A stretch of 64,000 nucleotides of DNA from Patescibacteria group bacterium (GCA_041671125.1 JBAZCA010000001.1:136120-200119); one strand, 5' to 3'. Numbered from the stretch's first letter, positions 11,716-62,186 are shown. The notes: generated by a model not told the origin, from the sequence alone. Made by a program: numbers and translations.

Positions 11716-11736
11716 ATTTAAATACAAAATACATTA

Positions 11737-13607: not shown

Positions 13608-13630
13608 TTTAACGCAACCTTATACATCTT

Positions 13631-19060: not shown

Positions 19061-19190
19061 TTCTGTCCTCCTTTCCGCCCGGCGATGCCGGGCTGCTGTT
19101 AATAACGATCAACACCTCTCTGATTTTCATTGTCTTTCGTGTTTAAATCAAAAACAGAAAGCTATTGACGATTTATTATTTTTTAATGAA

Positions 19191-19410
19191 CTTAGGACTT
19201 ACGCGTTTGGAAAATAAACTCATTTTGTCATTCCGGTCGGAGCGTAGCGGAGAGCCGGAATCCAGCCTGCCTGCCGGCAGGCAGGGATTTAAAGGTAATA
19301 ATGTGTATATTTTTAAGATGCAGTTAGAGCTTTTAACCCTGGATTCCGGATAGCCTTACGGCTTCCGGAATGACAAAAGGGGTATTTGCGCGCAAACGCG
19401 TAAGTCCTAG
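19191..19410. repeat. Nested composite palindrome (outer acgcgtaagtcc arms around a family C core)
   Basis: cttaggacttacgcg...tgtcattccgg...cctgcctgccggcaggcagg...ccggaatgaca...cgcgtaagtcctag. Confidence 0.75.
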
Positions 19411-19635
19411 AACTAATATCCCGCAAATAAGTAAATTCTCTTTATTCGCGTCATTAGCGCGCATTCGCGTATTAGCATTACGAAATATTTGTAAATTTGT
19501 AACAGATTTGCCTGCCTGCCGGCGAGGCAGGTTGATTTGTGGGTATAAAGAAAATCTTCCCGCGCGGAAATGGGAAGACGAGATGGAAAAGTGCAGGCAC
19601 AATCCATTCACGCGCGGGTTTTTGCCTTGCCAGGG

Positions 19636-19884
19636 CTACTTTTTAGCTTTTTCCTCCTTAATAATTCCGAGCTCTAAATGGCGAAGCCGGTACATCTCAT
19701 TTACCGGATTCGCTTTCTGCTCCCGGGCAGCCTTCGCCCGGTCGCAATCCCTCTCCGAGTGCGCCCTCTTGAAGCGACGCACATACTCTTCTTTTTCGGC
19801 CTTACTCAGCATATTACCGAATCGGCCGATTTCCAGCCCGCAACGCCGACAACAGACTGGAACAAAAAAACTTATTGAAACCAT
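19636..19884 (-). CDS. Small basic Cys-containing protein (82 aa)
   Basis: MVSISFFVPVCCRRCGLEIGRFGNMLSKAEKEEY... Preceded by CCAGAAGGAGGA and 4 nt, then ATG. Confidence 0.4.
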   Translation of the reverse strand: MVSISFFVPVCCRRCGLEIGRFGNMLSKAEKEEYVRRFKRAHSERDCDRAKAAREQKANPVNEMYRLRHLELGIIKEEKAKK

Positions 19885-20133
19885 CACTTCCTCCTTCTGG
19901 CGCCCCTCTCTTAATGTAGGGTCGCCTGTCAAATATTAAAACACGTCCTCTGCCAACTTTCTGCTTTCCATCCATAACTATCTATACCCTTATTAGATCC
20001 TTCAGCCTAATCGGCCTCAGGATGACAAAAAACAAAATAAAAAACAAAAGGCTGGCGAGGACTTGGCTTAATTTATAAAGAGCAAAATCTAATATTTGTA
20101 AATTTGTAACGGATTTGTTGATTCGTAGGTTAT

Positions 20134-20162
20134 AAAAAACCGTCCCCTTTTTCTTGAGACGG
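20134..20162 (-). terminator. Rho-independent terminator downstream of tyrA
   Basis: Minus strand reads CCGUCUC-AAGAAAAAG-GGGACGG followed by UUUUUU. Confidence 0.65.
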
Positions 20163-20185
20163 CTTTTGTTGTAATCTTGGATTAT

Positions 20186-20215
20186 ATTATAAACAAAAAC
20201 TCTAACTTTTGTCAA
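20186..20215 (-). promoter_or_regulatory. Consensus promoter located between the tyrA stop and its terminator
   Basis: Minus strand reads TTGACA (20210-20215), 18 nt spacer, TATAAT (20186-20191). Confidence 0.45.
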
Positions 20216-20241
20216 TAGCGCTATGTTTTAGGAAAAATTGA

Positions 20242-21327
20242 TTAATTGGCTTGTTTTTTGTATGACTCTTCCATAATCGCCTTATAAATTCCCCTGACCA
20301 GCCGCTCGTTCATCCTGAATTTTTTAACCTTGTCTTTAATAATTTCCTCTTCCCTTTTCTTATCAATAACCGCGAGGCCTTTTTTCTTTTTAATCCGGCC
20401 AATGGCTTTGACTTCGGCGAAACGACCGGCTAAAAGTTTAAAAATCCGGTTGTCAATTTTATTAATTGTCTCCCGCCTAAAATCCAGTTCGTCTTCTCTC
20501 TTAGCTTTCCTGATCCGGCCGTCAAGCGCTTCGCAGGCGGCCATGAATTTTTCCCGCACTGACCCGGCGTAAGGGTTAAAATTATGCATGTCATAAAATA
20601 ACTGCCAGTTGTCCGAAGTCGTATGCGGAAGGATGGAAAGTAAATCAGTATAGCCGGGAGTAAAAATTTCCTGCTCCCGCGCTCCGGCGCCGAGTAGCGC
20701 CCGGCCGACAAAATGGACGAGCCCTAAAGTATAGGCGTTCTGGCGGTCATGATTTTCAGGAGAGGTGATTATGATTTTTAAACCGAGACCAGTCAAAAAT
20801 CCCCTGATCTTTTTTAATTCTTCCGGACTAATCCGGATCGGGCAAAGGACAATCTGCAAATCTTTTAAATTCCACGACTGCTTTTCAAAACTGAATTTAG
20901 TCGTAACCGGCCCGAACTGGGGATGGGTGCCCATAATCATTACATTTTCAGGCAAATATTTTTTAAGCCATTGGCAGGGATAAACTTTAACCGAGCAGGT
21001 ATCAACGATTAACGCCCCGGGCTTAACATAATTGGCAATCTTTTTAATCACCTCTTCCGTAACCGAAATCGGAACCGTTAAAATTATTAGATCGCATCCG
21101 GCCGCTTCTTTCAGGCTGACAATTTTCGCGCCGATTTTTTTAGCTTTTAAAGTATCTCCCTGGCTGATTTTATGATCATAAACGCGAACATCTCCCCGTT
21201 TAGAAAAAACGCTCGCGGCCAGTTCGCCGAAACGCCCGAACCCGATTATAGCCACCGTTCTTCGGATGGATCTAATTTTATTTTTCTCATTCATAGCCAT
21301 TATTTCCGCGTAAAATCTGCGTCTCAT
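20242..21327 (-). CDS. tyrA: Prephenate dehydrogenase fused to a C-terminal AroQ chorismate mutase
   Basis: VAIIGFGRFG Rossmann motif and a PDH domain. The C-terminus FRRETINKIDNRIFKLLAGRFAEVKAIGRIKK...REEEII is a CM type 2 helix pattern. Confidence 0.85.
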   Translation of the reverse strand: MRRRFYAEIMAMNEKNKIRSIRRTVAIIGFGRFGELAASVFSKRGDVRVYDHKISQGDTLKAKKIGAKIVSLKEAAGCDLIILTVPISVTEEVIKKIANYVKPGALIVDTCSVKVYPCQWLKKYLPENVMIMGTHPQFGPVTTKFSFEKQSWNLKDLQIVLCPIRISPEELKKIRGFLTGLGLKIIITSPENHDRQNAYTLGLVHFVGRALLGAGAREQEIFTPGYTDLLSILPHTTSDNWQLFYDMHNFNPYAGSVREKFMAACEALDGRIRKAKREDELDFRRETINKIDNRIFKLLAGRFAEVKAIGRIKKKKGLAVIDKKREEEIIKDKVKKFRMNERLVRGIYKAIMEESYKKQAN

Positions 21328-21348
21328 GCTCCGCGGTATATCCGCGTC

Positions 21349-21930
21349 CTATCGGTCATAATTATTAACCGCCGCGATAAAGGTGGTAAAATTGAATTTT
21401 AAATCCTGAATTCCCTCTTCCGCGAGATCCAAGTCATATAATTCGGCGCAAACTTTCGGCGCGATAACCGCCGTGGTCTTAGGGATTACTTCGTCGGCTA
21501 AATCTTTGGCAGCCGTCGCCGTATCCGGATACTCGTTTAATTCAGCCTGGGGCCATTTTCTTTTTAAATACATCCGGCATTGGCGGAGCGCCTGCTGGTG
21601 CGAGGTGATGGCGTCAATTTTTTTCAGGTCCGCGCCTTTCTTCATTAAAAGGTTCATCTTAATATCAATTTCAAACATTTTTTCAATCTGGAAAATATGG
21701 CGAGCCATGGCTTCAACCGCTTCTACTACGATTCCGCCATTAGAATTCTCAATCGGAAAAATGCCGATATTTATTTTTCCCTTCCCGAGCGACCGCAAAA
21801 CATTCTCAACCGAAGTGAGATATTCCAACTCGTAATGCTCCAGCTTTTCCTCCCGGGCGTAATGTTTGGCGGCTTCTTCGGTAAAACTTCCCCGGTTTCC
21901 CGAAACGCCAATGATGATTTTAGCGGACAT
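21349..21930 (-). CDS. pheA: Prephenate dehydratase, catalytic domain only (no ACT domain)
   Basis: GVSGNRGSFTEEAA...IFPIENSNGGIV...ITSHQQALRQC are PDT motifs. 193 aa. Confidence 0.85.
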   Translation of the reverse strand: MSAKIIIGVSGNRGSFTEEAAKHYAREEKLEHYELEYLTSVENVLRSLGKGKINIGIFPIENSNGGIVVEAVEAMARHIFQIEKMFEIDIKMNLLMKKGADLKKIDAITSHQQALRQCRMYLKRKWPQAELNEYPDTATAAKDLADEVIPKTTAVIAPKVCAELYDLDLAEEGIQDLKFNFTTFIAAVNNYDR

Positions 21931-22070
21931 AAAATTAAATTTTTAATTCCTAATTTTTAATTTTTAAACAATTTCCAATGAATTAATTTCTAAATTTTTA
22001 AATTGAAAAATTCAAAATTGTTTGAAAATTAAAAATTGAAAATTGAAAATTAATAATGAATCATTAAACA
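21931..22070. repeat. Family E AT-rich long hairpin (aattttcaa/ttgaaaatt units)
   Basis: Arms aatttttaatttttaaacaatttccaatgaattaatttctaaattt and aaattgtttgaaaattaaaaattgaaaattgaaaatt. The same family occurs at 7845, 27016, 45897, 56651 and 57035. Confidence 0.7.
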
Positions 22071-22135
22071 CTCTGCTAATAATACCCGGAATGTTGAATT
22101 CAGTATATCAATTTTCCGTTAATTATCAATCCCCC

Positions 22136-22164
22136 TTGACACCAAATCGGAAAAAATGTATTAT
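22136..22164 (+). promoter_or_regulatory. Sigma70-like promoter of the aro operon leader
   Basis: TTGACA (22136-22141), 17 nt spacer, TATTAT (22159-22164). Confidence 0.55.
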
Positions 22165-22195
22165 TAAAAAAGTGAACAAAAATAATAAATAAAAT

Positions 22196-22279
22196 ATGAA
22201 ATTCGGCCAAATCTGGTTTAGCTACTTTTATTTTTACTTTACCCTTAAAACAAGGCCGGTTTTTTGCATTAATCAATAG
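22196..22279 (+). CDS. Candidate leader peptide, Trp/Phe/Tyr-rich (27 aa)
   Basis: MKFGQIWFSYFYFYFTLKTRPVFCINQ, verified codon by codon. 10 of 27 residues are aromatic, covering all three aromatic amino acids. Confidence 0.6.
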   Translation: MKFGQIWFSYFYFYFTLKTRPVFCINQ

Positions 22280-22299
22280 ATAAATAAAATAAGCAAATA

Positions 22300-22328
22300 G
22301 AACCCGGCCCAAAAGAGCCGGTTTTTTT
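22300..22328 (+). terminator. Attenuator terminator 6 nt upstream of the first aro gene
   Basis: CCGGC (22304-22308), 8 nt, GCCGG (22317-22321), then T7. CCGGCC can alternatively pair with GGCCGG at 22254-22259 inside the leader ORF. Confidence 0.5.
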
Positions 22329-22334
22329 AATTTT

Positions 22335-23126
22335 ATGGCTTCAAAAAAAGAACTCTTATCAAAAATTATCAATCCCGTTTCCGGACGGACGGTTATTGTT
22401 CCCATGGATCACGGCGTTACCGACGGACCGATTTCGGGCCTTGAAAAAATGGATGAAATCATCCGCAAAGTAAAAGAAGGCGGCGCCGACGCTATTATCA
22501 TCCACAAAGGCATTTTTAAATTATGCCGGGAAGCCATCGGCGATCTTCCGGTTCTAATCCATATCTCGGCTTCAACCGGCATGGGCGTTTCTTTAAAAAA
22601 AGTTTTAGTCGCTACAGCCCGCGAAGTTAAAAACCTCGGCGCGGCCGGAGTTTCTGTCCATTTGAATATCGGGAACGAATACGAACCGGAAATGCTCCGC
22701 GATCTCGGCATTATTTCCCGCGAATGCGAAGAGGAAGGATTGCCGCTTTTAGCCATGATGTATCCGCGCGGCATTATTGACGGCCGGATAGTCCATTACA
22801 ACGACCCCGCCCGGGTGGCGCACGCCGCCCGCCTCGCGGCCGAACTCGGAGCCGACATAGTTAAAGTCCCATACACCGGCGACGCGAAAAGTTTCGGCGA
22901 AGTGGTCAAAAGCTGTCCCGTACCGGTCGTTATCGCCGGCGGAGCCAAAGGCTCGGAAGAAGCCATGCTTTCTTCCATCCGGGATTGCGTCCGGGCCGGA
23001 GCGACCGGAGTTTCGGTCGGCCGGAACGTCTTCCAGTCCGAAGACGTCCCGGGTATGGTAAAAAAAGTCCGGGACACTGTCTATAACGCGACCCTTAATT
23101 TGTCATCTATACAGACTGTCCGATAA
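22335..23126 (+). CDS. 2-amino-3,7-dideoxy-D-threo-hept-6-ulosonate (ADH) synthase, class I aldolase family (archaeal AroA')
   Basis: DhnA/FbaB-type aldolase with IVPMDHG and the Schiff-base region ADIVKVPY. The adjacent DHQ synthase II supports the specific call. Confidence 0.8.
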   Translation: MASKKELLSKIINPVSGRTVIVPMDHGVTDGPISGLEKMDEIIRKVKEGGADAIIIHKGIFKLCREAIGDLPVLIHISASTGMGVSLKKVLVATAREVKNLGAAGVSVHLNIGNEYEPEMLRDLGIISRECEEEGLPLLAMMYPRGIIDGRIVHYNDPARVAHAARLAAELGADIVKVPYTGDAKSFGEVVKSCPVPVVIAGGAKGSEEAMLSSIRDCVRAGATGVSVGRNVFQSEDVPGMVKKVRDTVYNATLNLSSIQTVR

Positions 23127-23127
23127 T

Positions 23128-23335
23128 TGTCATTCCGACCCCGCCTTTTGCGGGGGAGGAATCCCTTAAAGGTGAAAGTGGCTAGTTTAAGGGATTTCTC
23201 CCCGCCGATTCGGCGGGTCGAAATGACAAAAAAAGGAGTTGTCGGGTAGCTTGGAGAGATATAATTGAGTTGAACATATTATAAAAAAAATCTCATACGT
23301 AGCGATTAGATCTCTCGCTACGCTCGAGATGACAA
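23128..23335. repeat. Family C palindromic repeats (one full copy plus a half copy)
   Basis: tgtcattccgaccccgccttttgcggggg...ccccgccgattcggcgggtcgaaatgaca, then ...gattagatctctcgctacgctcgagatgacaaaag. The half copy supplies the ATG at 23329. Confidence 0.75.
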
Positions 23336-24351
23336 AAGATATGCAAAAAATATTCTGGTACCAGCCCCCGGTCTGGGATAAAAAATTAGTTACCGCGGCC
23401 ATTGAATCGGGCTTTTCCGCGATCTACGTCCGGCCAGAAGACATCTTAAGGACAAAAGAACTTTCCCTGGCCAAAGTCGTTTCAACCGCCGCGCCGGCTG
23501 ATTTCATCATCGGCGAAAACGTTGACGAAGTGGAAATCAAAAACAAAGAGGCTGAAGAACTGGTCGTCCGGCACCAGGGAAGAATTCCGGTTATTATAAG
23601 GAACCTTGACTGGACAATAATCCCTTTGGAAAATCTTATTTCAAAAACAACAAACTTAATCCAGCATGTCCGCGGTTATGACGAGGCTAAGCTGGCCTTT
23701 GAAACTTTGGAAAGCGGCTGTGACGGGATATTACTGGAAAGCGGCGATTTGAATGAAATAAAAAAAACAGCCACCCTGATTAAAGACGCCCAAAACGAAA
23801 AACTGAAACTCGCCCACGCTGAAATATCTTCAGTAGAACAGCTCGGTCTAGGCGACCGGGTGGTTGTTGATACTTCCTCCATATTATTTCCCGGCCAGGG
23901 CATGCTCGTCGGAGACTCTTCCAAAAGTATGTTTTTAGTATATAATGAAAACGTGGAGACTCCTTACTGCGATCCGCGTCCCTTCCGGGTTAACGCCGGC
24001 GGCGCCCACGCCTACATCCGCCTGCCCGGCGACAAAACTAAATATCTCGGAGAACTAAAAAGCGGCATGAAAGCTTTGGCCGTTGATCCGGCCGGCAACA
24101 CCGAAGAAGCTATCATCGGCCGGATAAAAATAGAAAAGCGGCCAATGCTTATTGTTCGGGCCAAAGTCGGTGAGCGAGACATGAGCCTGGTCATGCAAAA
24201 CGCCGAAACCATCCGGCTTACCGGAACTGACGGACAGCCGATTTCAGTTACAAAATTAAAACCCGGCGACAAGGTGCTGGCTTTCCTGCAGGAAGAAGGG
24301 GTTGGGAGGCATTTCGGCCAGAAAATAAAAGAAACCATAACCGAAAAATAA
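23329..24351 (+). CDS. 3-dehydroquinate synthase II (archaeal type, AroB')
   Basis: About 340 aa. The N-terminus FWYQPPVWDKKLVTAAIESGFSAIYV is typical of the DHQS-II family as I recall it. The true start may be the ATG at 23341. Confidence 0.8.
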   Translation: MTKDMQKIFWYQPPVWDKKLVTAAIESGFSAIYVRPEDILRTKELSLAKVVSTAAPADFIIGENVDEVEIKNKEAEELVVRHQGRIPVIIRNLDWTIIPLENLISKTTNLIQHVRGYDEAKLAFETLESGCDGILLESGDLNEIKKTATLIKDAQNEKLKLAHAEISSVEQLGLGDRVVVDTSSILFPGQGMLVGDSSKSMFLVYNENVETPYCDPRPFRVNAGGAHAYIRLPGDKTKYLGELKSGMKALAVDPAGNTEEAIIGRIKIEKRPMLIVRAKVGERDMSLVMQNAETIRLTGTDGQPISVTKLKPGDKVLAFLQEEGVGRHFGQKIKETITEK

Positions 24352-24446
24352 ATAAATCCATACCAATAATATATCGGACCGTTTACTTGCTAAATAGCGG
24401 CGAAAGTGATACTTTAGGGAAATAATAGCTTTTAATTCCGTAATTT

Positions 24447-25835
24447 ATGATAAAAAACGGAAAGATCATCGTTAATAAATTCGGCGGCGGGATCATGATT
24501 GAAAAACATATCCCCTTTACCGATGAAAGGTTAAGAGAGCAGATTAAAGCCGGCTTCCGACCGGTGGTTGTCGTTTCGGCTTTAAAAGGCGTTACTGACC
24601 GGATCATCCATTTTCTCGCCGGACTAAAACATGAAGTCTGCCGCAACCAGCAGATTGGCGGCAACACCGAAAAATTTTCCATCCGCCTGGTAAGCCCTTT
24701 TGTCGCCGAGTTAAAGGAAGACCATCTAAAGCTCCTTGAGCAAGTCGGAGTATTAAGGGAGGAACGGAAAAAAGCGATGGCTGACATGGATAAAATTTTT
24801 TTCGGGCTGGAAAACGATTTAAACGCCCTCCTCCGTTTTGGATTCTTAAATGTTTTTGATGATAAGATCTCGGCCTACGGCGAAAAGCTAGCCGGGGTTT
24901 TTTTTACCGCCTACCTTAATTCCAAAGGCTTTACCGCCCGGACAATAATGGCTGAAGACATTCCGATAATGACCGATGACTCTTTCCGCGACGCCAATAT
25001 TGATTACAAAGTTTCGGAAAAAAACGCGAGAAAAAAAATCCTGAAATCCGCCGGCATCCCGGTTATCCCGGGCTTTACCGGAAAAACCGCCAACGGCAAC
25101 GTGACTACCCTTGGCCGCGGAGGAACTGATACAACCGCTTGCTTTTTAGGAGCCGCTCTCAGGGCCGACAAAATAATTTTATGGAAAGACGTGGACGGAG
25201 TATTGTCGGCCGACCCAAAAATCGTCCCTTCCGCGAAAACCGTCCCTTTTATAAGCTACGCCGAAGCCGAAGAATCCGGCAAAATAATCCACGACAAAGC
25301 CATCCAGTACGTAAAAATGTTTAAGACTCCGGCCGAAGTGGCGGCCATTTCCGATCCGGCGAAAAAAACCTTAGTCGGCCCGTCCAAAGATAAAAAAGAG
25401 GGTCCGAAGATTGTCAGCTTTAAAAAAGATCTCTCGCTTCTAATCATCACCGACGAAAAAATGAACCAACGCGGCTATCTCGCCCATGTTACCGGGCTAT
25501 TGGCCTCCCGCAAAGTAAACCTGGACACTATAAGAAATACCCGTGATAAACTGCATATTGTCGCTGAAAGCTATAACGGCCCGATTGAAGAGGCGGTTCG
25601 CGACCTAAAGGAAGAAGTGGCAAAATTAAAAATCATTCCGGTAAACATGGTTGTTTTGATTGGTAGCCTGAGCTGGGAGATGGTCAGCCGATTTAACGAT
25701 GTTCTTATAAAGCTCTGCCCCGACGCGGAACTGGGCGCTTTTCCTTACCGGAATTGCGTCCGGCTGGAAGCCGTAGTCCGAGCCGAAGACACGGAAAAAA
25801 TGATCCGGGCTTTGCATGAAGAATTTATTAAATAG
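24447..25835 (+). CDS. Aspartate kinase
   Basis: IVNKFGGG, VVVVSALKGVTD and LGRGGTDTTA amino-acid-kinase motifs, plus a C-terminal ACT-like region. Confidence 0.85.
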   Translation: MIKNGKIIVNKFGGGIMIEKHIPFTDERLREQIKAGFRPVVVVSALKGVTDRIIHFLAGLKHEVCRNQQIGGNTEKFSIRLVSPFVAELKEDHLKLLEQVGVLREERKKAMADMDKIFFGLENDLNALLRFGFLNVFDDKISAYGEKLAGVFFTAYLNSKGFTARTIMAEDIPIMTDDSFRDANIDYKVSEKNARKKILKSAGIPVIPGFTGKTANGNVTTLGRGGTDTTACFLGAALRADKIILWKDVDGVLSADPKIVPSAKTVPFISYAEAEESGKIIHDKAIQYVKMFKTPAEVAAISDPAKKTLVGPSKDKKEGPKIVSFKKDLSLLIITDEKMNQRGYLAHVTGLLASRKVNLDTIRNTRDKLHIVAESYNGPIEEAVRDLKEEVAKLKIIPVNMVVLIGSLSWEMVSRFNDVLIKLCPDAELGAFPYRNCVRLEAVVRAEDTEKMIRALHEEFIK

Positions 25836-25837
25836 CC

Positions 25838-25915
25838 TGTCATCCTGAGCGAAGCGAAGGATCTCGTAAATAGAGTCTTACCACGGGATTCTTCGGCCTT
25901 CGGCCTCAGAATGAC
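25838..25915. repeat. Family C palindromic repeat
   Basis: tgtcatcctgagcgaagcgaaggatctcg...gattcttcggccttcggcctcagaatgac. Very similar to 53989-54066. Confidence 0.8.
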
Positions 25916-25926
25916 CTTTTTAATTT

Positions 25927-27015
25927 ATGAAAAAATTTAGAGTCGGCATCCTCGGCGCGACCGGCATGGTTGGCCAAAACTACATAAGATTGCTTAATAA
26001 CCACCCCTGGTTCAAAGTTACCTACGTCGCGGCTTCGGCCAATTCGGCCGGAGTAACGTATTTTGATTCCATAATCGGCCGCTGGCAGATGGCCACCGCC
26101 GTCCCCAAAGACACAAAGTCTTTAATCGTTGAAAATGTCGCCAACATCAATAAAGCCAGGAAGCATTGTGATTTTGTTTTTTCGGCCTTTGAAATGCCGG
26201 ACAAAAACCTGGTTAAAGAAATGGAGGAAAAATACGCCGCCGCCGGAATCCCGGTCGTCTCAAACGCCTCGGCCAACCGGTTTACCGATGACGTGCCCAT
26301 GCTTATCCCGGAAATAAATCCGCACCATATTGACATCATTCCGATCCAGAAAAAAAAACGTGGCTGGAAAAAAGGTTTTATCGTCGTCAAACCCAATTGC
26401 AGTCTTCAAAGTTATATCACCCCGATTTTTTCCCTTACTAAAGCGGGCTATCCGGTTGAAAAAATATTTATCACCACCCTTCAGGCCGTATCCGGCGCCG
26501 GTTATCCGGGCGTGCCAAGCCTGGATATGATTGGCAATGTCGTGCCATTTATCCCGGGCGAAGAAGAAAAAACCGAGGAAGAACCTTTAAAAATCCTCGG
26601 GGAAATAAAGGACGGAAAATTCCAAAAGGCGGTTTATCCGACAATTTCCGCCCATTGCAACCGGGTGCCGGTGATTGACGGCCATCTCGCCTGCGTCAGC
26701 CTGAAATTCGCCGGGAAAAAACCCAGCCGGGAAAAAATCCTGAAAATCTGGAAAGAATTCAGGGCTCTTCCCCAAACCTTAAAACTGCCGATGGCGCCGG
26801 AACAGCCGATCCTTTACCGTAACGAGCATAACCGCCCCCAGCCGAGAAAAGACCGGGATCGGGAAAAAGGCATGGCCGTTACCGTCGGACGCTTAAGGGA
26901 ATGCAAAATCTTTGACTATAAATTCGCGGCTTTAAGCCATAACACGGTGCGCGGCGCGGCCGGCGGCGGAATATTAAACGCCGAATTGCTTGTGAAGAAA
27001 GGATATATAAAATAA
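25927..27015 (+). CDS. asd: Aspartate-semialdehyde dehydrogenase
   Basis: VGILGATGMVGQ, KPNCS (active-site Cys) and SAHCNRVPV motifs. Confidence 0.9.
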   Translation: MKKFRVGILGATGMVGQNYIRLLNNHPWFKVTYVAASANSAGVTYFDSIIGRWQMATAVPKDTKSLIVENVANINKARKHCDFVFSAFEMPDKNLVKEMEEKYAAAGIPVVSNASANRFTDDVPMLIPEINPHHIDIIPIQKKKRGWKKGFIVVKPNCSLQSYITPIFSLTKAGYPVEKIFITTLQAVSGAGYPGVPSLDMIGNVVPFIPGEEEKTEEEPLKILGEIKDGKFQKAVYPTISAHCNRVPVIDGHLACVSLKFAGKKPSREKILKIWKEFRALPQTLKLPMAPEQPILYRNEHNRPQPRKDRDREKGMAVTVGRLRECKIFDYKFAALSHNTVRGAAGGGILNAELLVKKGYIK

Positions 27016-27120
27016 ATCTTCAATTATCAATGATCAATTTTCAATCAATTTTCAATTAAGCAATTTTAAAATTTAGAAATTAATTCATTTAAAATTGTTT
27101 AAAAATTTAAAATTTTCCGA
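27016..27120. repeat. Family E AT-rich hairpin repeat
   Basis: caattatcaatgatcaattttcaatcaattttcaattaagcaattttaaaatttagaaattaattcatttaaaattgtttaaaaatttaaaatt. Confidence 0.65.
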
Positions 27121-27131
27121 TTTACATTTCA

Positions 27132-28430
27132 ATGTCTTCAAAATCATATAAAATTCTTCCTCTCAAACATCCAATCAGTAAAACCATCACCATGCCCGGT
27201 TCTAAGAGCCTCTCTAACCGCTGCTTAGTAATGGCGGCGTTTTCGCGCGGGCAATCCGTAATCACGGGCGCGTCCGAATCGGACGACTGCCGGATTATGG
27301 TTTCCGCGCTAAAAAAATTGGGAGTTAAAATTAAAAAAAACCGAAACCGGTTGATTGTTTTTGGTAATAACGGCGAATTCCAGCCTTTCAAAGGAAAAAT
27401 AGATGTTGGCGCGGCCGGAACCGCCGCCCGTTTTCTTCTCGCTATCTGCGCTCTGGCGCCCGGAGAAATAATCCTTGACGGGACGTATCGTATGCGGCAA
27501 AGGCCAATCGGCGAACTGGTTAACGCTTTACGAAAACTCGGAGCCGGAATCCAATACCAAAGAAAAGCTAATTGCCTGCCGGTTAAAATCAGGGGTGGAA
27601 ATCTAACCGGCCGGAAAGTCAGCCTGCCCGGAAGAATCTCAAGCCAATTTTTTACTTCCCTTCTCCTGATCGCCCCGGTTTTAAAACAAGGGATTGAAAT
27701 AAGCGTTATTGGCGGACAAATTTCTAAATCTTATATAGACATGACTTTGGACGGTTTAAAAAAACACGGGGTTAGGATAAAAAACCAGGATTATAAAAAA
27801 TACATAGTCCGGCCAGATGCTCGCTACAAACCGGGTCATTACCAAGTTGAAGGCGACGCTTCAGGCGCGAGTTATTTTTTCGCCCTGGCCGCGTTAACCA
27901 AAAACCGGATCCGGATAAAAAATATTCTGCCTGATTCTTCGCAAGGCGACGCTAAATTTCCGGATCTACTAAAACGGATGGGCGCGAAAGTAATAAAAAA
28001 CCAAAAAGAAAACTGGATTGAAGTATCCGGAACCGGCCGCTTAAAAGGCATTTCCGTTAATATGGAAAACATGCCGGATACGGCTCAGACTTTAGCGATA
28101 GTGGCCGCCTTTGCCAAAGACAAAACTAAAATCACCGGGCTTTCCACTCTAAGACATAAAGAAACCGACCGCCTTTCAGCGCTAAAGAATGAACTGAAAA
28201 AAATGGGCGTCAGGTCTGAAATTACCGCTAATTCCATAACGATTCACGGCGGGCGACCGGGCAGCGCGATAATTGATACTTATGGTGATCACCGCATGGC
28301 CATGGCTTTCGCGATCGCTGGCTCGCGGATTCCGGACTTAGCGATTAAAGACCCGGCCGTAGTGTCAAAATCATTTCCGGAATTCTGGTCACTATTAAAA
28401 AGTATTGGTGTTAAAACAACGTCATCCTGA
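27132..28430 (+). CDS. aroA: 3-phosphoshikimate 1-carboxyvinyltransferase (EPSP synthase)
   Basis: PGSKSLSNR, GAAGTAARFL and HRMAMAFAIAG motifs. The last codons ACG TCA TCC TGA lie in the family C repeat. Confidence 0.9.
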   Translation: MSSKSYKILPLKHPISKTITMPGSKSLSNRCLVMAAFSRGQSVITGASESDDCRIMVSALKKLGVKIKKNRNRLIVFGNNGEFQPFKGKIDVGAAGTAARFLLAICALAPGEIILDGTYRMRQRPIGELVNALRKLGAGIQYQRKANCLPVKIRGGNLTGRKVSLPGRISSQFFTSLLLIAPVLKQGIEISVIGGQISKSYIDMTLDGLKKHGVRIKNQDYKKYIVRPDARYKPGHYQVEGDASGASYFFALAALTKNRIRIKNILPDSSQGDAKFPDLLKRMGAKVIKNQKENWIEVSGTGRLKGISVNMENMPDTAQTLAIVAAFAKDKTKITGLSTLRHKETDRLSALKNELKKMGVRSEITANSITIHGGRPGSAIIDTYGDHRMAMAFAIAGSRIPDLAIKDPAVVSKSFPEFWSLLKSIGVKTTSS

Positions 28431-28520
28431 GCGAAGTGGAACGTAGTGAAGGATCTCGTTAAAAACAGTAAGCGTCGCGAAGACGGGATTCTTCCCCCGC
28501 AAATGCGGGGTCAGAATGAC
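28421..28520. repeat. Family C palindromic repeat overlapping the aroA stop
   Basis: gtcatcctgagcgaagtggaacgtagtgaaggatctcg...gggattcttcccccgcaaatgcggggtcagaatgac. Confidence 0.8.
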
Positions 28521-28533
28521 GAAAAGAGAATAT

Positions 28534-29856
28534 ATGAATATAATCCTTATCGGTTTCATGGGTTCGGGAAAAACTACGCTAGCCAAAATACTCACAGACG
28601 CTTTGGGCTGGAAGGCAATTGAAATGGATGATTTGATTTTAAAAAAAAGCGGTCGAAGGACCATTGGTGAAATTTTTGAAAAAAACGGCGAATCGGTCTT
28701 TCGAAAATTGGAAGCGCAAATCGCCAGAGAATTATCCAATACTAATAATAAAATCATCTCTACCGGCGGGGGCGTTATCATGAACGCTAAAAATATCGCT
28801 AACCTGAAAAAAACCGGAAAAATTGTTTATTTAAAAGACAGCTTTGAAAATATCCGGGAAAGATTAAAAAAAGATAAAACCCGGCCGCTCTTTCAGGATT
28901 TAAAGAAAGCAAGAAAACTGTTTAAGCTTCGCCAGTCCTTATACGAGAAATACGCCGATGAAATTATTAATTGCGCGGCTAACCCGGACTTAAACCGCGT
29001 CAGCCGGGAAATTACTAAACGGCTGGAAAAAGACTTAAAAAAAATCTGCCTGATTATCGGCGATCCCGTAGCCCACAGCCTCTCGCCCGCCATGCATAAC
29101 GCCGGCTATCGGGCTTTAAAAATTGATAACCAATTTATTTTTCTTTCAGCCAAAGTTAAGCCGCGGGAATTAAAAAACAGCGTCCGGGCGGCGAGAACTT
29201 TAGGAATCCGCGGACTTACCTCTACCATGCCGCACAAACAAGCGATAATGAAATACCTTGACCGGATTGACCCAATCGCGAAAAAAATCGGCGCGGTTAA
29301 TACGGTGGTTAATGAGAGCGGCCGACTGACCGGCTATAATACTGACTGGCTGGGCGCCGTAATCCCTTTGGAAAATTCTGCCGGTAAAAATGGCTTAAAA
29401 AATAAAAGAGTGGCTCTACTCGGTTCGGGCGGCGCGGCCCGGGCGATTGCCTACGGGTTAGCGAAAAAAGGCGCCCGCTTAAAAATCTTTGACCGCGACA
29501 TTAATAACGCGCGAAAACTGGCTAAGGAATTCGGGGCAGAATCCGGCGGTTATTCGCAAATCCATGAAGTTAAAAGCTCTGACATCATTATCAACGCCAC
29601 GCCGATCGGCATGAAACCGCGTGAAAATGAATCACTGGTACCAGCGGAATTTTTACGTAAAGACCAGGTTGTTTTTGACGCCGTCTATTTTCCCCGAAAA
29701 ACCAAACTTTTAAAACAGGCGGAAAAAAAAGGCGCGAAAATTATTCCCGGCTTGGAAATGCTTTTATATCAGGGAGCGGCCCAGTTTGAATTATATACCG
29801 GCAGAAAAGCGCCGGTTGAAGCAATGAGAAAAGCCTTGAAAAGATGCGAGCATTGA
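28534..29856 (+). CDS. aroK-aroE: Shikimate kinase / shikimate 5-dehydrogenase fusion
   Basis: N-terminus has GFMGSGKTT and STGGGVI (shikimate kinase). C-terminus has GDPVAHSLSPAMHN, MPHK, NTDW and GSGGAARA (shikimate dehydrogenase). Start placed at MNIILIGF. The stop lies in family B repeat copy 3. Confidence 0.85.
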   Translation: MNIILIGFMGSGKTTLAKILTDALGWKAIEMDDLILKKSGRRTIGEIFEKNGESVFRKLEAQIARELSNTNNKIISTGGGVIMNAKNIANLKKTGKIVYLKDSFENIRERLKKDKTRPLFQDLKKARKLFKLRQSLYEKYADEIINCAANPDLNRVSREITKRLEKDLKKICLIIGDPVAHSLSPAMHNAGYRALKIDNQFIFLSAKVKPRELKNSVRAARTLGIRGLTSTMPHKQAIMKYLDRIDPIAKKIGAVNTVVNESGRLTGYNTDWLGAVIPLENSAGKNGLKNKRVALLGSGGAARAIAYGLAKKGARLKIFDRDINNARKLAKEFGAESGGYSQIHEVKSSDIIINATPIGMKPRENESLVPAEFLRKDQVVFDAVYFPRKTKLLKQAEKKGAKIIPGLEMLLYQGAAQFELYTGRKAPVEAMRKALKRCEH

Positions 29857-30038
29857 AAAATTTCGGATAAGACAAACGGACATTTTCCTCTACAAAATTT
29901 TTCTGTCCGAGCGAACCCGCCGAATCGGCGGGGAGCGAGTTAAAAATTTTGTTAGGAAAATAGAGGTTTGACCCGAAATTTTTCACCTGCTCGCGATTTT
30001 TACGCCACTTTTTCTAAAAAAGTGGCAAATAAAATACA
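29853..30038 (+). repeat. Family B structured element, copy 3 (variant inner stem)
   Basis: Same outer arms (gatgcgagcattgaaaaatttcgg / ccgaaatttttcacctgctcgc), same central cccgccgaatcggcgggg and same 3' hairpin. The inner arms differ from the other copies but remain mutually complementary. Confidence 0.8.
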
Positions 30039-30048
30039 TCTTATAAAT

Positions 30049-30717
30049 ATGAACATCCGTATCTGCGCCGTTATTACGGGAAAAAACTTAAAAGAATTTA
30101 TAACTAACCTGAAAAAAGCCCAGAAACAAACTGACTGGGTTGAGCTAAGGGTGGATTATATTCGTGATTTCAAAATTGAAGATATAGCAAAAATCAAAAA
30201 GGGGGTTAAAAAAAATTCCATATTCACCTGCAGAAAACCAAACGAAGGCGGAGAGTTTAAAGGCGCGGAAAAAGAACGGCTGGCCATATTAAACGCCGCG
30301 CTTAAAGAAGGCTTTGATCTAATTGACATTGAGCTCTCCTCTTTTGACAAAGTAAGAATTCCCGCCGGCAATCCGAGGATGATTTGTTCCTATCACGATT
30401 TTAAAAAGACTCCGAGTTTAGAACAGCTTAAAAAAATCGCCGCCAAGATGGAAAAAACCGGAGCGCCGATAATTAAACTTGTAACCATGATTAACGAACT
30501 AGATGACAACCAAAAACTTTTTGAACTTTTGGCCGCTAAGAAAAATGAATCAAAGATGATAGTTTTGGGCATGGGAGAAAAAGGAAAAATCACCCGCCTT
30601 TTATCCCCGCTCTGGGGCGGCTTTATGACTTTCGCGTCAATCGGACAGGCGACAGCGCCGGGGCAAATGACGGTTAAAGAATTGAAGGATGTTTATAAAA
30701 AAATGGGTGCCCGGTAA
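30049..30717 (+). CDS. aroD: 3-dehydroquinate dehydratase, type I
   Basis: MNIRICAVITG...VELRVDY...ICSYHDF...KLVTM (Schiff-base Lys region). The ORF-track start at 29968 lies in the repeat. Confidence 0.85.
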   Translation: MNIRICAVITGKNLKEFITNLKKAQKQTDWVELRVDYIRDFKIEDIAKIKKGVKKNSIFTCRKPNEGGEFKGAEKERLAILNAALKEGFDLIDIELSSFDKVRIPAGNPRMICSYHDFKKTPSLEQLKKIAAKMEKTGAPIIKLVTMINELDDNQKLFELLAAKKNESKMIVLGMGEKGKITRLLSPLWGGFMTFASIGQATAPGQMTVKELKDVYKKMGAR

Positions 30718-30758
30718 GGATAAAAGGCACGCCTCTAATCCTTACCGGGGTTGGGGGT

Positions 30759-30869
30759 TTATTCCTCTTTCTTTTTTCCCTTCACTATTTTATAAATGGC
30801 AACATGCTCATTTATGGCGAAGGCGACAAAAAGAAAGATCATCACCCACTTGACGATTTCAATCAACAA
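30759..30869 (-). CDS. Candidate 36-aa single-TM peptide antisense to the aro operon
   Basis: AGGAGGTG, 6 nt, then a TTG start: (M)LIEIVKWVMIFLFVAFAINEHVAIYKIVKGKKKEE. Followed by the hairpin ccggtaaggat/atccttaccgg (30709-30748). Confidence 0.3.
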   Translation of the reverse strand: MLIEIVKWVMIFLFVAFAINEHVAIYKIVKGKKKEE

Positions 30870-30934
30870 TTTTTTCACCTCCTTTCATAAAGAACAGTTG
30901 TATTAACATAACATAATTATTAATTTTTGTCAAT

Positions 30935-32011
30935 ATGTCAAACACATTTGGAAAATTATTCACTATTACTACTTTCGGCGAATCGCACGGTCCGGCGTTG
31001 GGCGTTATTATTGACGGCTATCCGGCCGGTTTAAAAATTACCGAGGCGGACATCCAGAAAGAACTAGACCGGAGAAAACCCGGGCAAAGCGCGATTACGA
31101 CGTCACGCGAAGAGGATGATAAAATCCGGATTATGTCCGGCATTACCGAAGGAAAAACCACCGGCGCGCCAATTATGCTGATCGTGGAAAACCGCGACGC
31201 CCGTTCAAAGGATTATGGCAGTCTTAAAGAGGTTTACCGGCCCGGACACGCGGATTTTACTTATGAAGTTAAATACGGGCATAGAGAATGGCGCGGCGGC
31301 GGACGAGCGTCGGCGAGAACTACCTTAGCCCAGGTGGCGGCCGGCGCAATCGCTAAAAAATATTTAAAGGAAAAACTCGGCGTTGAAATCCTCGGCTTTG
31401 TTGACCAGGTAGGCGATATTAAGGCCGATATTGAATGCGCTAAAGTGAGTTTAAAAAAAGTTGAAGCCAATCCTATCCGCTGTCCTGACGAAAAAACCGC
31501 GAAAGAAATGATTAAACTTATTATTGCCGCGAAAGCCGATGGCGATTCAGTCGGCGGCGCGGTGGCGGCCGTTATCAGGAATGTTCCGGCCGGCCTTGGC
31601 AGTCCGGTTTTTGATAAACTACCGGCTGATTTAGCTAAGGCCATGATGGGAATTAACGCGGCCAAAGGCTTTGAAATCGGCTCGGGATTCGGGGCGGCGA
31701 AAATGCGCGGGAGCGAACATAATGATTCTTTTTACAGCGCCAACGGCCAGGTTAAAACCAAAACCAACTTTGCCGGCGGAACGCTGGGCGGAATTTCTAC
31801 CGGCGAAGATATTTATTTCCGCGTCGCTTTTAAGCCGACTTCCACTATCTCAAAAGCTCAGGATACGATTGACCGCCGCGGCAAAAAGGTCATTTTAAAA
31901 GCCGCCGGACGCCACGACCCCTGCATCGTCCCCCGCGCCGTCCCAATAGTAGAAGCCATGGCGGCGTTGGTGGTTATGGATCATTATCTAAGGTGGAAGG
32001 CGTATAAATAG
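30935..32011 (+). CDS. aroC: Chorismate synthase
   Basis: FGESHGPALGVIIDG, RPGHAD, GGGRASARTT and GRHDPC motifs. Confidence 0.95.
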   Translation: MSNTFGKLFTITTFGESHGPALGVIIDGYPAGLKITEADIQKELDRRKPGQSAITTSREEDDKIRIMSGITEGKTTGAPIMLIVENRDARSKDYGSLKEVYRPGHADFTYEVKYGHREWRGGGRASARTTLAQVAAGAIAKKYLKEKLGVEILGFVDQVGDIKADIECAKVSLKKVEANPIRCPDEKTAKEMIKLIIAAKADGDSVGGAVAAVIRNVPAGLGSPVFDKLPADLAKAMMGINAAKGFEIGSGFGAAKMRGSEHNDSFYSANGQVKTKTNFAGGTLGGISTGEDIYFRVAFKPTSTISKAQDTIDRRGKKVILKAAGRHDPCIVPRAVPIVEAMAALVVMDHYLRWKAYK

Positions 32012-32020
32012 TGAACCGCG

Positions 32021-32050
32021 CTTGACACCAATTCCCCTTTTTGCTATAAA
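32021..32050 (+). promoter_or_regulatory. Sigma70-like promoter of the trp T-box leader
   Basis: TTGACA (32021-32026), 18 nt spacer, TATAAA (32045-32050). Confidence 0.55.
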
Positions 32051-32059
32051 TAAAATAGA

Positions 32060-32330
32060 TCATTTACAGAAATAAAGTCTAGCCGGATCCCTTGGAATTC
32101 CCGAGGGACTGGGTCCGGTAGTCATGCCTGATACAGTATAGGCATGAAAGGCGGCTTTTGCGTTAGTGAAAGCCCGGCTTCCTCCGTAACCACAGGATAA
32201 CCAGTTTCCAGGCATGGAGCTGGTGAAAGCGATCCGCTTCTTCGGCGGGTAAAAAAGGTGGCACCGCGGGATAACCTCTCGTCCTTTTATCTAAATTTTA
32301 TGTTTGGATAAAAAGATGAGAGGTTTTTTT
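32060..32330 (+). promoter_or_regulatory. T-box riboswitch leader (predicted tRNA-Trp responsive)
   Basis: aaaaaaGGTGGCACCGCGGGataaCCTCTCGTCC (32251-32284) matches the conserved T-box sequence. Terminator: cctctcgtcc...gatgagagg followed by T7, ending at 32330. Candidate UGG specifier at 32093-32095 (UGGA) or 32110-32112. Confidence 0.8.
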
Positions 32331-32630
32331 AATATCTACAAATCAACGAATTTACAACAAATCTACGAATATAGAACTTACGCGTTTATGCGTAAATACC
32401 CCCTTTGTCATTCCGGAAGCCGTTTGGCTATCCGGAATCCAGGATTAGAAGCTTTAACTAAATTTTCAGGATTAAAGGCATTATTACCTTTAAACCCTGG
32501 ATTCCGGCTCTCCGTCTCGATGATTCGGGACTCCGGCCGGAATGACAAAGTGAATTTGTTGGTTAAACGCACAAGTCTTGGAATAAATAAAATTTACATA
32601 TTTGTAAATTCGTCGTTGATTTGTGGGCGC
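32331..32630. repeat. Triple-nested palindromic composite between the T-box and trpE
   Basis: Outer arms caaatcaacgaatttacaa / ttgtaaattcgtcgttgatttg. Middle arms acttacgcgttt / aaacgcacaagt. Inner family C core tgtcattccgg...ccggaatgaca. Confidence 0.75.
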
Positions 32631-32640
32631 CCAAATAACT

Positions 32641-34053
32641 ATGCTTCCTAAAATATTATTAAATAACAAAAAACCGACTTACGTTAAATTCGCCGAGGAC
32701 TTAGACTTCTTTAAGCTGTTTAAAATTATTGAACGGGTTTTTGACAACTGTTTTATCCTTGAATCCCTCGGTGAAGAGGGCGACCGTTCGCGTTATCACG
32801 TCATTGGTTTTGACCCGGAAATGATCTTGTCGGCGCGCGGTAATGAATTAAAATGCCATCGCGTAGAGACGAGGCATGCCTCGTCTCTAACCGGCGCGCC
32901 TAAACCGCGGGTATCTGTCCATCAAACCAAAAATCCCTATTACGCCCTGCGCCAAATCGTTCCTAAAGACATAATCTCGCGCCAATATTCCGGCGGTCTT
33001 ATCGGCTATATCGCTTATGAGGCTATGAATTATTTTGAACCGGCGATAAATTTAAAACCTCATCCTGATTTTGACCAGTTTAAATTCGGCGTTTATACCG
33101 ACGGCCTGGTTTACGATAAAATGACCGGCGAGGCGTTTTATTTTTACTACGATAACGACCGCTCGGCGCTATTAAAAGAAATCGCCTTGGCCGGAAAAAA
33201 TATCGGTTTAAAATCCAAACCCCGGGTTAAATTCATCCGCGACACAAAAACAGAAAAAGAGCATGAAAAAATGGTAAAAAGGATAAAAAAAGATATCGTG
33301 GACGGCAAAATCTTCCAGTGCGTCGCCGGTTTTAAAAGCGAATTTAAGCTCAGCGGTCCGGACATCTTGATTTACGAAAGGCTCCGGACGATAAATCCCT
33401 CGCCGCACATGTTTTATTTAAAATTCGGCGCTGAAAAAATCATCGGCGCGAGTCCCGAGCTCCTTTTTCGCCTGCGCGAGGGCGAGATGGAAACTTTTCC
33501 TTTGGCCGGAACCGCGGCCCGGGGAAAAAACGCCGATGAAGACCAGAAGCTCGGACGCCGGCTTTTATCCGACCCGAAAGAAATTGCCGAGCATTCCATG
33601 TTAATTGACCTCCATCGGAATGACATCGGCCGGGTCGCCAAATTCGGGACGGTTAAAGTCCGAAACGCGATGACCCTGAAAAAATTCAGCCACGTCCAGC
33701 ATATCTCTTCCGAAGTGGCTGGCGCGATTAAAAAAAGCGAAGACATGTTCTCCACTTTAGCCGCTAATTTTCCGGCCGGCACTTTAAGCGGCGCGCCTAA
33801 AATTGAAGCTATAAAAATAATCGCCCGTGAAGAAAGGCGGGCGCGGGGTCCTTACGGCGGCGCCGTCGGCCATTTCGGCTTTAATGGCGAATGCGCTTTT
33901 GCCATCCCCATCCGCTCGCTTTTTATTTCGGGAAAAAAAGCCTTTACCCAGACCGGCGGCGGGATTGTTTATGATTCTACACCCGCCAAAGAATACAGTG
34001 AAATTATAAATAAGTTAGCGGCCATGAAAAAAGTACTAGAAAAATTTGAATAA
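32641..34053 (+). CDS. trpE: Anthranilate synthase component I
   Basis: SPELLFR, LAGTAARG, DPKEIAEHSMLIDL and GTLSGAPK motifs. Contains a perfect 26 bp palindrome at 32864-32889. Confidence 0.9.
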   Translation: MLPKILLNNKKPTYVKFAEDLDFFKLFKIIERVFDNCFILESLGEEGDRSRYHVIGFDPEMILSARGNELKCHRVETRHASSLTGAPKPRVSVHQTKNPYYALRQIVPKDIISRQYSGGLIGYIAYEAMNYFEPAINLKPHPDFDQFKFGVYTDGLVYDKMTGEAFYFYYDNDRSALLKEIALAGKNIGLKSKPRVKFIRDTKTEKEHEKMVKRIKKDIVDGKIFQCVAGFKSEFKLSGPDILIYERLRTINPSPHMFYLKFGAEKIIGASPELLFRLREGEMETFPLAGTAARGKNADEDQKLGRRLLSDPKEIAEHSMLIDLHRNDIGRVAKFGTVKVRNAMTLKKFSHVQHISSEVAGAIKKSEDMFSTLAANFPAGTLSGAPKIEAIKIIAREERRARGPYGGAVGHFGFNGECAFAIPIRSLFISGKKAFTQTGGGIVYDSTPAKEYSEIINKLAAMKKVLEKFE

Positions 34054-58146: not shown

Positions 58147-58147
58147 C

Positions 58148-62180: not shown

Positions 62181-62186
62181 ACTTTC

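Follow-up and report, generated by a model that had tools for sequence, protein, structure and literature searches.

In a 64,000-nt stretch of DNA from a Patescibacteria group bacterium (GCA_041671125.1 JBAZCA010000001.1:136120-200119, hereafter the window), the aroA gene, the aroK-aroE fusion gene and the leuC-leuD fusion gene (leuCD) terminate inside copies of palindromic repeats, belonging to the families designated C, B and D, respectively. We put at about 80% the probability that small palindromic repeats were inserted into packed operon junctions, rewriting the ends of the upstream genes. A first-pass annotation of the window had proposed that repeats replaced the original termini of these genes, and this was borne out, as 2–9 terminal residues and the stop codon were found to be swapped, and relatives without the repeat end differently. 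The changed residues lie beyond the last Pfam domain position, and the changes to the proteins are small. Alignment of orthologues, named beforehand as the test that could overturn the proposal, found termini that are not ancestral, with empty sites in the relatives L087, L089 and L082-84.

The shikimate genes form a cluster of the archaeal type on the plus strand, according to Pfam scans of the window, and were compared with the syntenic loci of three close relatives (L086, L087 and L089); the best aroA relative with a named genome was a Candidatus Roizmanbacteria metagenome-assembled genome, at 57% identity. For leuCD the comparison used relatives L082-84 and an alignment of 11 orthologues (A1), the five closest being 74–77% identical to the window protein, and for thrC an alignment of 8 orthologues (A3) and E. 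coli ThrC (1vb3). Family B boundaries were taken from an alignment of six copies (A2). Nucleotide identity between the window and L087 is mosaic over window positions 19000-34000 (92.8% from DHQS to ASD, 89% in aroA, 75% in aroKE and 78–82% in aroD and aroC), which suggests recombination between related Patescibacteria populations.

Stop codons within repeat copies at three junctions

The first-pass annotation had placed the stop codons of aroA, aroK-aroE and leuCD within family C, B and D copies, and all three placements hold. The aroA coding sequence ends ...ACG TCA TCC TGA. The family C end GTCATCCTGAGCG, a multi-copy 13-mer, has its first base at the G of ACG (28421), so that the gene's two final codons and its stop (TCA TCC TGA, 28422-28430, with TGA at 28428-30) are family C sequence. 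The element at this junction folds as a single long hairpin (-40.1 kcal/mol, z = -4.0) with the aroA UGA within the stem, and the next in-frame ATG is located 86 nt past the aroA stop. L087, in which aroA is 89% nucleotide-identical, has no element here; its AroA ends ...GVKITNKNK*, with the TGA overlapping the aroK ATG as ATGA, and the junction reads GGC GTT AAA ATA ACC AAT AAA AAC AAATGAAC.... In silico removal of 28421-28520 makes the window align base for base with L087. At the same junction, L089 has a 26-nt spacer without a family C element (aroA end ...GIKLA*), and L086 has a different, unrelated palindrome of ~200 nt (aroA end ...GVKIK*). The ATGA overlap of aroA and aroK was also found in a dozen distant relatives. 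A recoding of the aroA UGA, or a reading as an element resembling a selenocysteine insertion sequence (SECIS), was considered and rejected, since read-through would be out of frame with aroK and the ATGA overlaps of relatives show that UGA is a normal stop; a hammerhead or kink-turn reading of the CUGA...GA arm was likewise rejected because of an incomplete core and the lack of an Rfam match.

The aroK-aroE gene ends ...AGA TGC GAG CAT TGA (TGA 29854-56), and the six-copy alignment sets the left edge of family B (ATGCGAGCATTGA / ATGCGAGC) at position 29844, before this stop, so that TGC GAG CAT TGA, the three final codons plus stop, is family B sequence. The L089 locus is without family B, aroE there ending ...SKNLK*, followed by a 19-nt spacer and the aroD ATG. 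In L087, the family B copy and the RCEH* end are those of the window, with a nested GC-rich palindrome in addition, and L086 has another small palindrome without family B, of which the left arm GTCTGAACCACTGA again includes the aroE stop.

The leuCD gene ends ...ATT TTT CCT CCC CCT TAC CAA GGG GGA GGC TAG (protein ...IFPPPYQGGG*, TAG 50392-50394), with the stop in the first of two identical tandem 42-nt units of family D; the overlap between gene and repeat is 30 nt and is identical to the adjoining unit. The five closest orthologues in A1 end ~7–8 residues earlier (...EIL, ...EIYK, ...DINI, ...EIK). L082-84 read ...GAA ATA TTATGACA... (protein end ...LATEIL*), with an ATGA overlap of leuCD and leuB and nothing between the genes, and the ~475 nt separating these genes in the window (the two family D units, a complete DUF559 open reading frame (ORF) and a D-like hairpin) are missing in relatives. 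Since the junctions of relatives are empty or different at aroA, aroE and leuCD, the window termini appear to be derived and repeat-encoded. The element boundaries at aroE/aroD and leuCD/leuB fall in A/T runs, and the ancestral junctions are therefore not base-exact. Coordinates of all features are given in Table 1.

Further along the shikimate cluster, the 217-nt gap between aroD and aroC, a gap of only 5–27 nt in relatives, has a hairpin at 30731-30758 and a 39-aa ORF (MKKLLIEIVKWVMIFLFVAFAINEHVAIYKIVKGKKKEE) at 30759-30878 on the minus strand, which follows an AGGAGG sequence and is antisense to the operon; its product may be a small membrane or toxin-like peptide.

Table 1. Positions of genes, repeat elements and pseudo-starts in the window
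Feature	Position	Strand	Details
thrC	15423-16781	-	carries D-like hairpins in frame
ADH synthase (DeoC family)	22335-23126	+	Pfam; stop 23124-23126
DHQS-II	23341-24351	+	orthologous ATG 23341; Pfam
Aspartate kinase (AK)	24447-25835	+	Pfam; stop TAG 25833-35
ASA dehydrogenase (asd)	25927-27015	+	Pfam
aroA (EPSP synthase)	27132-28430	+	Pfam EPSP_synthase, residues 13-420 of 432
aroK-aroE fusion	28534-29856	+	Pfam SKI, Shikimate_dh_N, SDH_C; SDH_C ends 4 residues before the stop
aroD (type I dehydroquinase)	30049-30717	+	orthologous ATG; Pfam DHquinase_I
aroC	30935-32011	+	Pfam; tryptophan genes next
leuC-leuD fusion (leuCD)	48400-50394	+	branched-chain cluster
DUF559 ORF	50449-50868	+	Pfam DUF559 residues 12-118; no own stop
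leuB	50869-52056	+	orthologous ATG, start MLKKTIALVPGDG
Family C-like palindrome TTGTCATTCCGAC...GTCGAAATGACAA	23127-23229		abuts the ADH-synthase stop; fold -60 kcal/mol, z = -6.9
Solo family C-type arm	23292-23335		upstream of DHQS-II
Family C element	25838-25917		begins 2 nt past the aspartate-kinase stop
Family C element GTCATCCTGAGCG...GGGGTCAGAATGAC	28421-28520		between aroA and aroK
Putative relic of ancestral aroA 3' coding end, now non-coding spacer	28521-28533 (13 nt)	+	aligns with L087 CAATAAAAACAA (codons N-K-N-K) before the common ATGA
Family B element	29844-30029		~160-nt long hairpin GCGAGCATTGAAAAATTTCGG...CCGAAATTTTTCACCTGCTCGC, then second hairpin GCCACTTTTTCTAAAAAAGTGGC
Other family B copies	11530-11716, 13424-13608, 40122-40304		repeat search
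Two D-like hairpin units inside thrC	15989-16083	-	in frame; ~25 extra residues YPLLTSPLERGRKRAGQKISPPLKGG
Family D unit inside leuC	49377-49418	+	in frame; encodes SSPLLRGRLGG
Two identical tandem family D units	50363-50404, 50405-50446		first holds the leuCD tail and TAG
Pseudo-start ATG of aroK	28516-28518	+	in frame, six codons upstream of orthologous ATG 28534
Pseudo-start TTG of aroD, inside family B	29968-29970	+	adds 27 codons

Repeat families, their turnover and the proposed rewriting of gene ends

Family C consists of inverted ends GTCATCCTGAGCG(A/T)AGCGAAGGATCT around a variable centre, with at least nine elements of 75–250 nt in the window, where its terminal 13-mer occurs 15 times at ≤2 mismatches, versus 0.47 expected. 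The four window copies of family B (ATGCGAGCATTGAAAAATTT...GCCACTTTTTCTAAAAAAGTGGCAAA, ~186 nt) share an identical 20-mer, ATGCGAGCATTGAAAAATTT, for which no occurrence is expected by chance, and family D is a 42-nt unit (TTTTTCCTCCCCCTTACCAAGGGGGAGGCTAGGAGGGGGTTG) that is C-rich/G-rich and forms eight hairpins in the window. That gene ends are part of these repeats is far beyond chance. Like MITEs (miniature transposable elements with inverted repeats), families B, C and D are small, non-coding and multi-copy, and terminal inverted repeats are present in family C (GTCATCCTGAGCG / CGCTCAGGATGAC) and family B (GCGAGCATTGAAAAATTTCGG / CCGAAATTTTTCA..GCTCGC). All elements form long hairpins with folding energies well below those of shuffled controls (z = -3.9 to -9.7), with -33 to -60 kcal/mol for family C elements (z -3.9 to -6.9) and -79.4 kcal/mol for family B (z = -9.7).

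Several other repeats were observed. In L087, GC-rich palindromes (CCTGCCTGCCGGCAGGCAGG and a longer version) are nested in family B copies at 8475-8500, 8625-8650 and 11390-11445, and they appear to be a further repeat family that inserts into repeats. The window also has a pair of 95-nt inverted repeats (19315-19409 / 32372-32466, 86% complementary, with GTCATTCCGG motifs), one copy of which gives the ATG of an unannotated 189-aa ORF (19370-19939), with the other located in the long aroC-trpE gap. AT-rich repeats (AATTTTTAATTTTT...) at 21930-22054, 27012-27128 and 45893-46043 are located 5' of the pheA/ADH synthase, aroA and ilvE/ilvA-like operons, and may be promoter or UP-element regions.

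The content of junctions differed between close relatives. The spacer between the aspartate kinase and ASA dehydrogenase genes is an unrelated palindromic element in each of the window (25836-25926), L087 (7274-7354) and L089 (7458-7526), with nearly identical flanking codons, and the spacer at the position of the 23127-23229 palindrome is unrelated in relatives. Between asd and aroA, L087 carries an additional family B copy that is missing from the window. No family D-type hairpins were found at the loci of close relatives, versus eight in the window, and the expansion of family D would thus be lineage-specific. The differing spacers at near-identical flanks, the family B copy found only in L087 and the absence of family D from relatives together point to turnover by recent gain and loss of elements, which is the chief, though indirect, evidence of mobility.

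We propose the following scenario. The host would be a Patescibacteria (Microgenomates/Roizmanbacteria-like) lineage with biosynthetic operons that were ancestrally packed, with ATGA overlaps or very short spacers between genes. Into these would have been inserted family C, in which two hairpin arms are paired in inverted orientation much as in REPINs (doublets of repetitive extragenic palindromic (REP) sequences), family B, a MITE-like long hairpin of ~190 nt, and family D, a 42-nt hairpin unit. Because there was almost no free intergenic DNA, an insertion would hit the upstream gene at its stop or within its final few codons, and the upstream frame would enter the element and end at the first in-frame stop, which would be the TGA at positions 8–10 of the family C end, the TGA at positions 11–13 of family B or a TAG that one of the family D frames contains. 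Survival would have been limited to insertions that spared the conserved domain and terminated quickly, so that the visible outcome would be the exchange of 2–9 non-conserved terminal residues and the stop, with the new tails probably translated and neutral. The downstream gene would retain its own start and lose the overlap with the upstream stop, and in-frame ATG or TTG codons of the repeat would do no more than extend the longest ORF and misguide some gene callers. An open repeat frame would let the element persist within the gene (leuC, thrC) or fuse ORFs (DUF559-leuB).

A number of observations weigh against this scenario. Stops within repeats were found for 4/62 ORFs, with ~3 expected from the 4.9% of the window covered by repeats, and so there is no enrichment; among 88 metagenome copies, long ORFs enter family C arms in all three frames (13, 8 and 13), and the TGA frame is not preferred. 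Pfam scans of the ORFs of the 64-kb window detected no transposase, no REP-associated tyrosine transposase (RAYT) and no insertion sequence with matching ends, and none of these ORFs matched a PF01797-type (RAYT, Y1 transposase) domain. There was no consistent target-site duplication in 8 family C, 6 family B and ~50 metagenome copies, although the A/T-rich flanks could mask short ones. Since neither a transposase nor a consistent duplication was seen, mobility is inferred only from copy number and from presence or absence between relatives, and both transposition and the direction of change (insertion rather than loss) are put forward as probable. The ancestral states were read from relatives whose own sequences form a mosaic with that of the window (74–93% nucleotide identity), and the family B copy common to the window and L087 could stem from recombination, not common descent.

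The only recombinase found in the window is a large serine recombinase (58148-59827, minus strand), which is part of an unrelated island of ~5.4 kb at 57604-63623 with 38–40% GC and a LOOT RNA (62870-62997, minus strand). This island is bounded by direct repeats of ~560 nt (57625-58185 / 63063-63623, 79–84% identical), duplicating part of a metallo-beta-lactamase-fold gene. Close by, at 56653-57077, 36-nt AT-rich inverted repeats enclose a gene of the 23S_rRNA_IVP family (56690-57034, minus strand), an insertion that separates the NDK and response-regulator genes, neighbours in L082. The stop of the response-regulator gene (57074-57535, minus strand) lies within the right one of these repeats, a case that was missing from the first-pass annotation.

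The hairpins might alternatively be selected regulatory parts of the mRNA, acting as insulators after stops, as RNase processing or stabilising structures or as REP-like throttles, with the position of the stop within the stem being functional. Nearly every junction of the shikimate operon has a strong palindrome in the window, L086 and L087, even with unrelated sequences, and three family C copies contain a stop or begin ≤2 nt from one, while the aroA UGA is base-paired in the stem with the aroK ATG 14 nt past the stem base. Stable structures right after stops have been reported to control re-initiation in bacteria (PMC7518266), and since termination-reinitiation coupling needs overlaps or very short distances (PMC10666635), the insertions must alter gene coupling. 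However, L087 (at aroA/aroK) and L089 (at several junctions) work without a large palindromic element, and members of the same families also occur within coding regions and between genes that converge or diverge. A terminator scan of 21800-32400 found no terminator-like family B or C element and no T-run after the elements, and no Rfam family matched the repeats, either in a gathering-threshold scan of the window or in an E-value scan of 23050-30100, which returned only LOOT, tRNAs and noise. The one weak promoter-like match (n = 1) uses the ATGACG of the repeat, but ends inside aroK. We regard a regulatory origin as unlikely, although it is not a strict alternative to insertion, as it would fit a selfish origin followed by co-option.

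Start codons, in-frame copies and public gene calls

The longest-ORF start of DHQS-II, ATG 23329, is located in CGCTCGAGATGAC / ...TCGAGATGAC, four codons upstream of the orthologous ATG 23341, and that of aroK, ATG 28516, in GGTCAGAATGAC / ...TCAGAATGAC. In both cases the sequence is the family C end in reverse complement, in agreement with the first-pass annotation, which had recognised the two starts as the ATG of the repeat motif. A third case, missing from its list, is the TTG that begins the longest ORF of aroD, with the Pfam DHquinase_I domain starting at residue 33 of that ORF. Homology with every relative begins at ATG 23341 (MQKIFWYQP), 28534 (MNIILIGFMGSGK) and 30049 (MNIRICAV): DHQS-II starts with MKKIFWYQP in L087 and MQKKFWYQP in L089, the aroK start is fixed by L086, L087, L089 and distant relatives, and L087 has exactly the same aroD start, which L086 and L089 conserve. 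The predicted misleading N-terminal extensions were indeed found in public records, which hold both a long and a short form of DHQS-II (340 aa in JGI, 336 aa in NCBI and ENA), AroK-AroE (446 aa in JGI, 440 aa in NCBI and ENA) and AroD (249 aa in ENA and JGI, 222 aa in NCBI). The earlier statement that repeats donate start codons thus stands for annotation artefacts, which is how it was meant, but not for real starts, which are the orthologous ones at 23341, 28534 and 30049.

That the repeat codons are genuine starts giving real N-terminal extensions is very improbable. They are in frame and open, and some pipelines call them, but the region homologous to all relatives sets in at the downstream ATG (the one that relatives have in the ATGA overlap), and the added 4, 6 and 27 codons are not conserved and lie in hairpin stems. 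Furthermore, ~8 family C ends face a gene start, and the ATG is in frame and open in only 2–3 of these, which is the one-in-three rate expected by chance. The downstream starts would accordingly be ancestral, judging from these alignments, with the repeat ATG and TTG codons appearing to be pseudo-starts only.

Open repeat frames were found at leuCD/leuB and inside genes. The DUF559 ORF runs in frame through the D-like hairpin (50824-50860) into leuB, with the junction-spanning sequence ...NQHKPLPNPPLLKGRGKFMLKK, and the resulting 535-aa DUF559-LeuB fusion is annotated as a dehydrogenase in NCBI, JGI and ENA, next to a second NCBI record of 395 aa. Family D also provides AGGAGG or GGAGG 6–9 nt upstream of both the DUF559 and leuB ATGs, in the former case from the second tandem unit (AGGAGG) and in the latter from GGGGAGGGG of the D-like hairpin. 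With family D hairpins on either side, the DUF559 ORF (Vsr-like endonuclease fold) is a candidate mobile cassette. The 11-residue insertion encoded by the family D unit in leuC was absent from 11/11 orthologues (an 11-column gap in A1), and the ~25-residue insertion in thrC from 8/8 orthologues (A3) and from E. coli ThrC, to which homology is broken at this point. Gene callers thus disagree on starts, ends and fusions in these Candidate Phyla Radiation (CPR) genomes, as with the 535-aa 'LeuB', and tails such as '...LSS', 'VILSEAKDL...', 'HPERSEGS...' and 'PPPYQGGG' in proteins should be taken as repeat-derived.

Two further explanations have next to no probability. If the termini were ancestral and the resemblance to repeats coincidental, the short overlaps (10 nt in aroA, 13 nt in aroE) and tail lengths within the range of distant orthologues would be accounted for, but the overlapping bases are invariant in multi-copy units, with similarity continuing 100–190 nt past the stop, the leuCD overlap is 30 nt and repeated in the adjoining unit, and close relatives are without both repeat and tail, as the empty sites show. 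Chimeric joins caused by the repeats are just as hard to credit: it is well known that short interspersed repeats lead to misassembled metagenomes, but the genes to either side of every element keep synteny with relatives, two contigs (87 kb and 276 kb) from different sources have the proteins and junction products in common, and L087 and L088 independently carry the same family B junction.

The family C arm across lineages and comparison with known systems

The exact 26-nt family C arm was found in at least 120 metagenome contigs with 38–73% GC, mostly as an inverted pair around a variable centre, judging from the window copies and ~50 metagenome copies. Its 5-bp stem co-varies (ATCCT/AGGAT 115, ATTCT/AGAAT 22, ATCCC/GGGAT 3, ACCCT/AGGGT 2 and ATGCT/AGCAT 2), with each mismatched combination seen at most twice, and every variant forms a stem of 5 bp, an internal GA/GA loop and an inner hairpin, of which GCGAAGC is the commonest form. 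The arm is thus a short imperfect palindrome with its own hairpin, as are REP sequences. Genes on unrelated contigs also end at the family C TGA: a LytTR gene (L166), 88% identical to a Reyranella aquatilis protein, and a DUF192 gene (L098) both end ...SS*, while most LytTR orthologues examined end ...WLEK*, and orthologue P0408 ends ...TLSS. Because of these two genes, stop donation by the repeat appears to have recurred across phyla. The family C consensus palindrome had no match in a plasmid collection, and a literature search with its sequence string gave only an irrelevant primer match.

It is conceivable, if somewhat unlikely, that family C is an undescribed palindromic element spread across phyla, rather than an ordinary lineage-specific MITE or REP, and that its insertion could leave stop and start spatially adjacent. 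If so, it would have spread widely by horizontal transfer with an unknown mobilising enzyme, or be recognised by a conserved host factor, and with a stop near one foot of the hairpin and a start past the other, such elements would be unusually harmless, or even useful, in operons of overlapping genes. The wide distribution of the arm is the most unusual by-product of this analysis, and the part most worth following. For the host, our reading would mean that small, streamlined Patescibacteria genomes bear active or recently active selfish palindromes, which disrupt the ancestral translational coupling of biosynthetic operons and extend essential enzymes by peptide segments. Turnover at the junctions seems fast, with different elements between genomes that are ~93% identical in flanking genes, and the junctions could therefore serve as strain markers.

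The closest parallels are the QMITE1 and QMITE2 elements of Coxiella burnetii, MITEs that overlap functional genes by 1–50 bp and supply C-terminal residues or the stop (PMC5896051). As in Coxiella, the window has small palindromic repeats with terminal inverted repeats at the 3' ends of genes, and occasionally in frame inside ORFs. The sequences and the host phylum are different, however; a link with IS1111 is known in Coxiella, whereas the window yielded no cognate transposase, and the affected window junctions are between ancestrally overlapping operon genes.

REP sequences and REPINs are mobilised by RAYT transposases (PMC3116915, PMC3337134), and REPIN-RAYT systems have been portrayed as vertically inherited and specific to lineages (PMC3116915; bioRxiv abstracts). 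Family C resembles REPINs in its inverted short hairpin units around a variable spacer, with each arm keeping its stem by compensatory changes. It is unlike REPIN-RAYT in that it does not form a lineage-restricted, vertically inherited population, the 26-mer crossing contigs of 38–73% GC that include an alphaproteobacterium, and in the lack of a RAYT in the window. REP sequences have GTAG at the 5' end, whereas family C has GTCAT.

In-frame intragenic palindromes are a hallmark of Rickettsia palindromic elements (RPEs) (PMC10969869), and family D can be likened to these by placement, as it is in frame in conserved metabolic genes (leuC, thrC), where it adds a peptide and keeps the ORF. In contrast to RPEs, family D is 42 nt versus ~150 bp, is proline/glycine-rich when translated, and resides in a free-living-type CPR genome.

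Repeats in the intercistronic junctions of operons, with ends overlapping the adjacent genes, were described as mycobacterial interspersed repetitive units (MIRUs) (Supply et al. 1997, as cited in PMC3184786). The window repeats share this location and these overlaps. MIRUs reportedly carry their own small ORF that bridges both genes, whereas the window repeats have no bridging ORF and no start codon overlapping the aroA, aroE or leuCD stops. Neisseria REP2 repeats (PMC3184786) can be compared with family D for its AGGAGG or GGAGG ahead of the DUF559 and leuB ATGs. In REP2, a donated start is functional and co-regulates genes (PMC3184786), in contrast to the repeat ATG and TTG codons described here, which appear to be annotation artefacts. 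A literature search on CPR/Patescibacteria with MITEs or palindromic repeats found nothing relevant, and in a phylum without a prior description found, the window is a well-supported further instance of the remodelling of gene ends by repeats that is already known in other bacteria.

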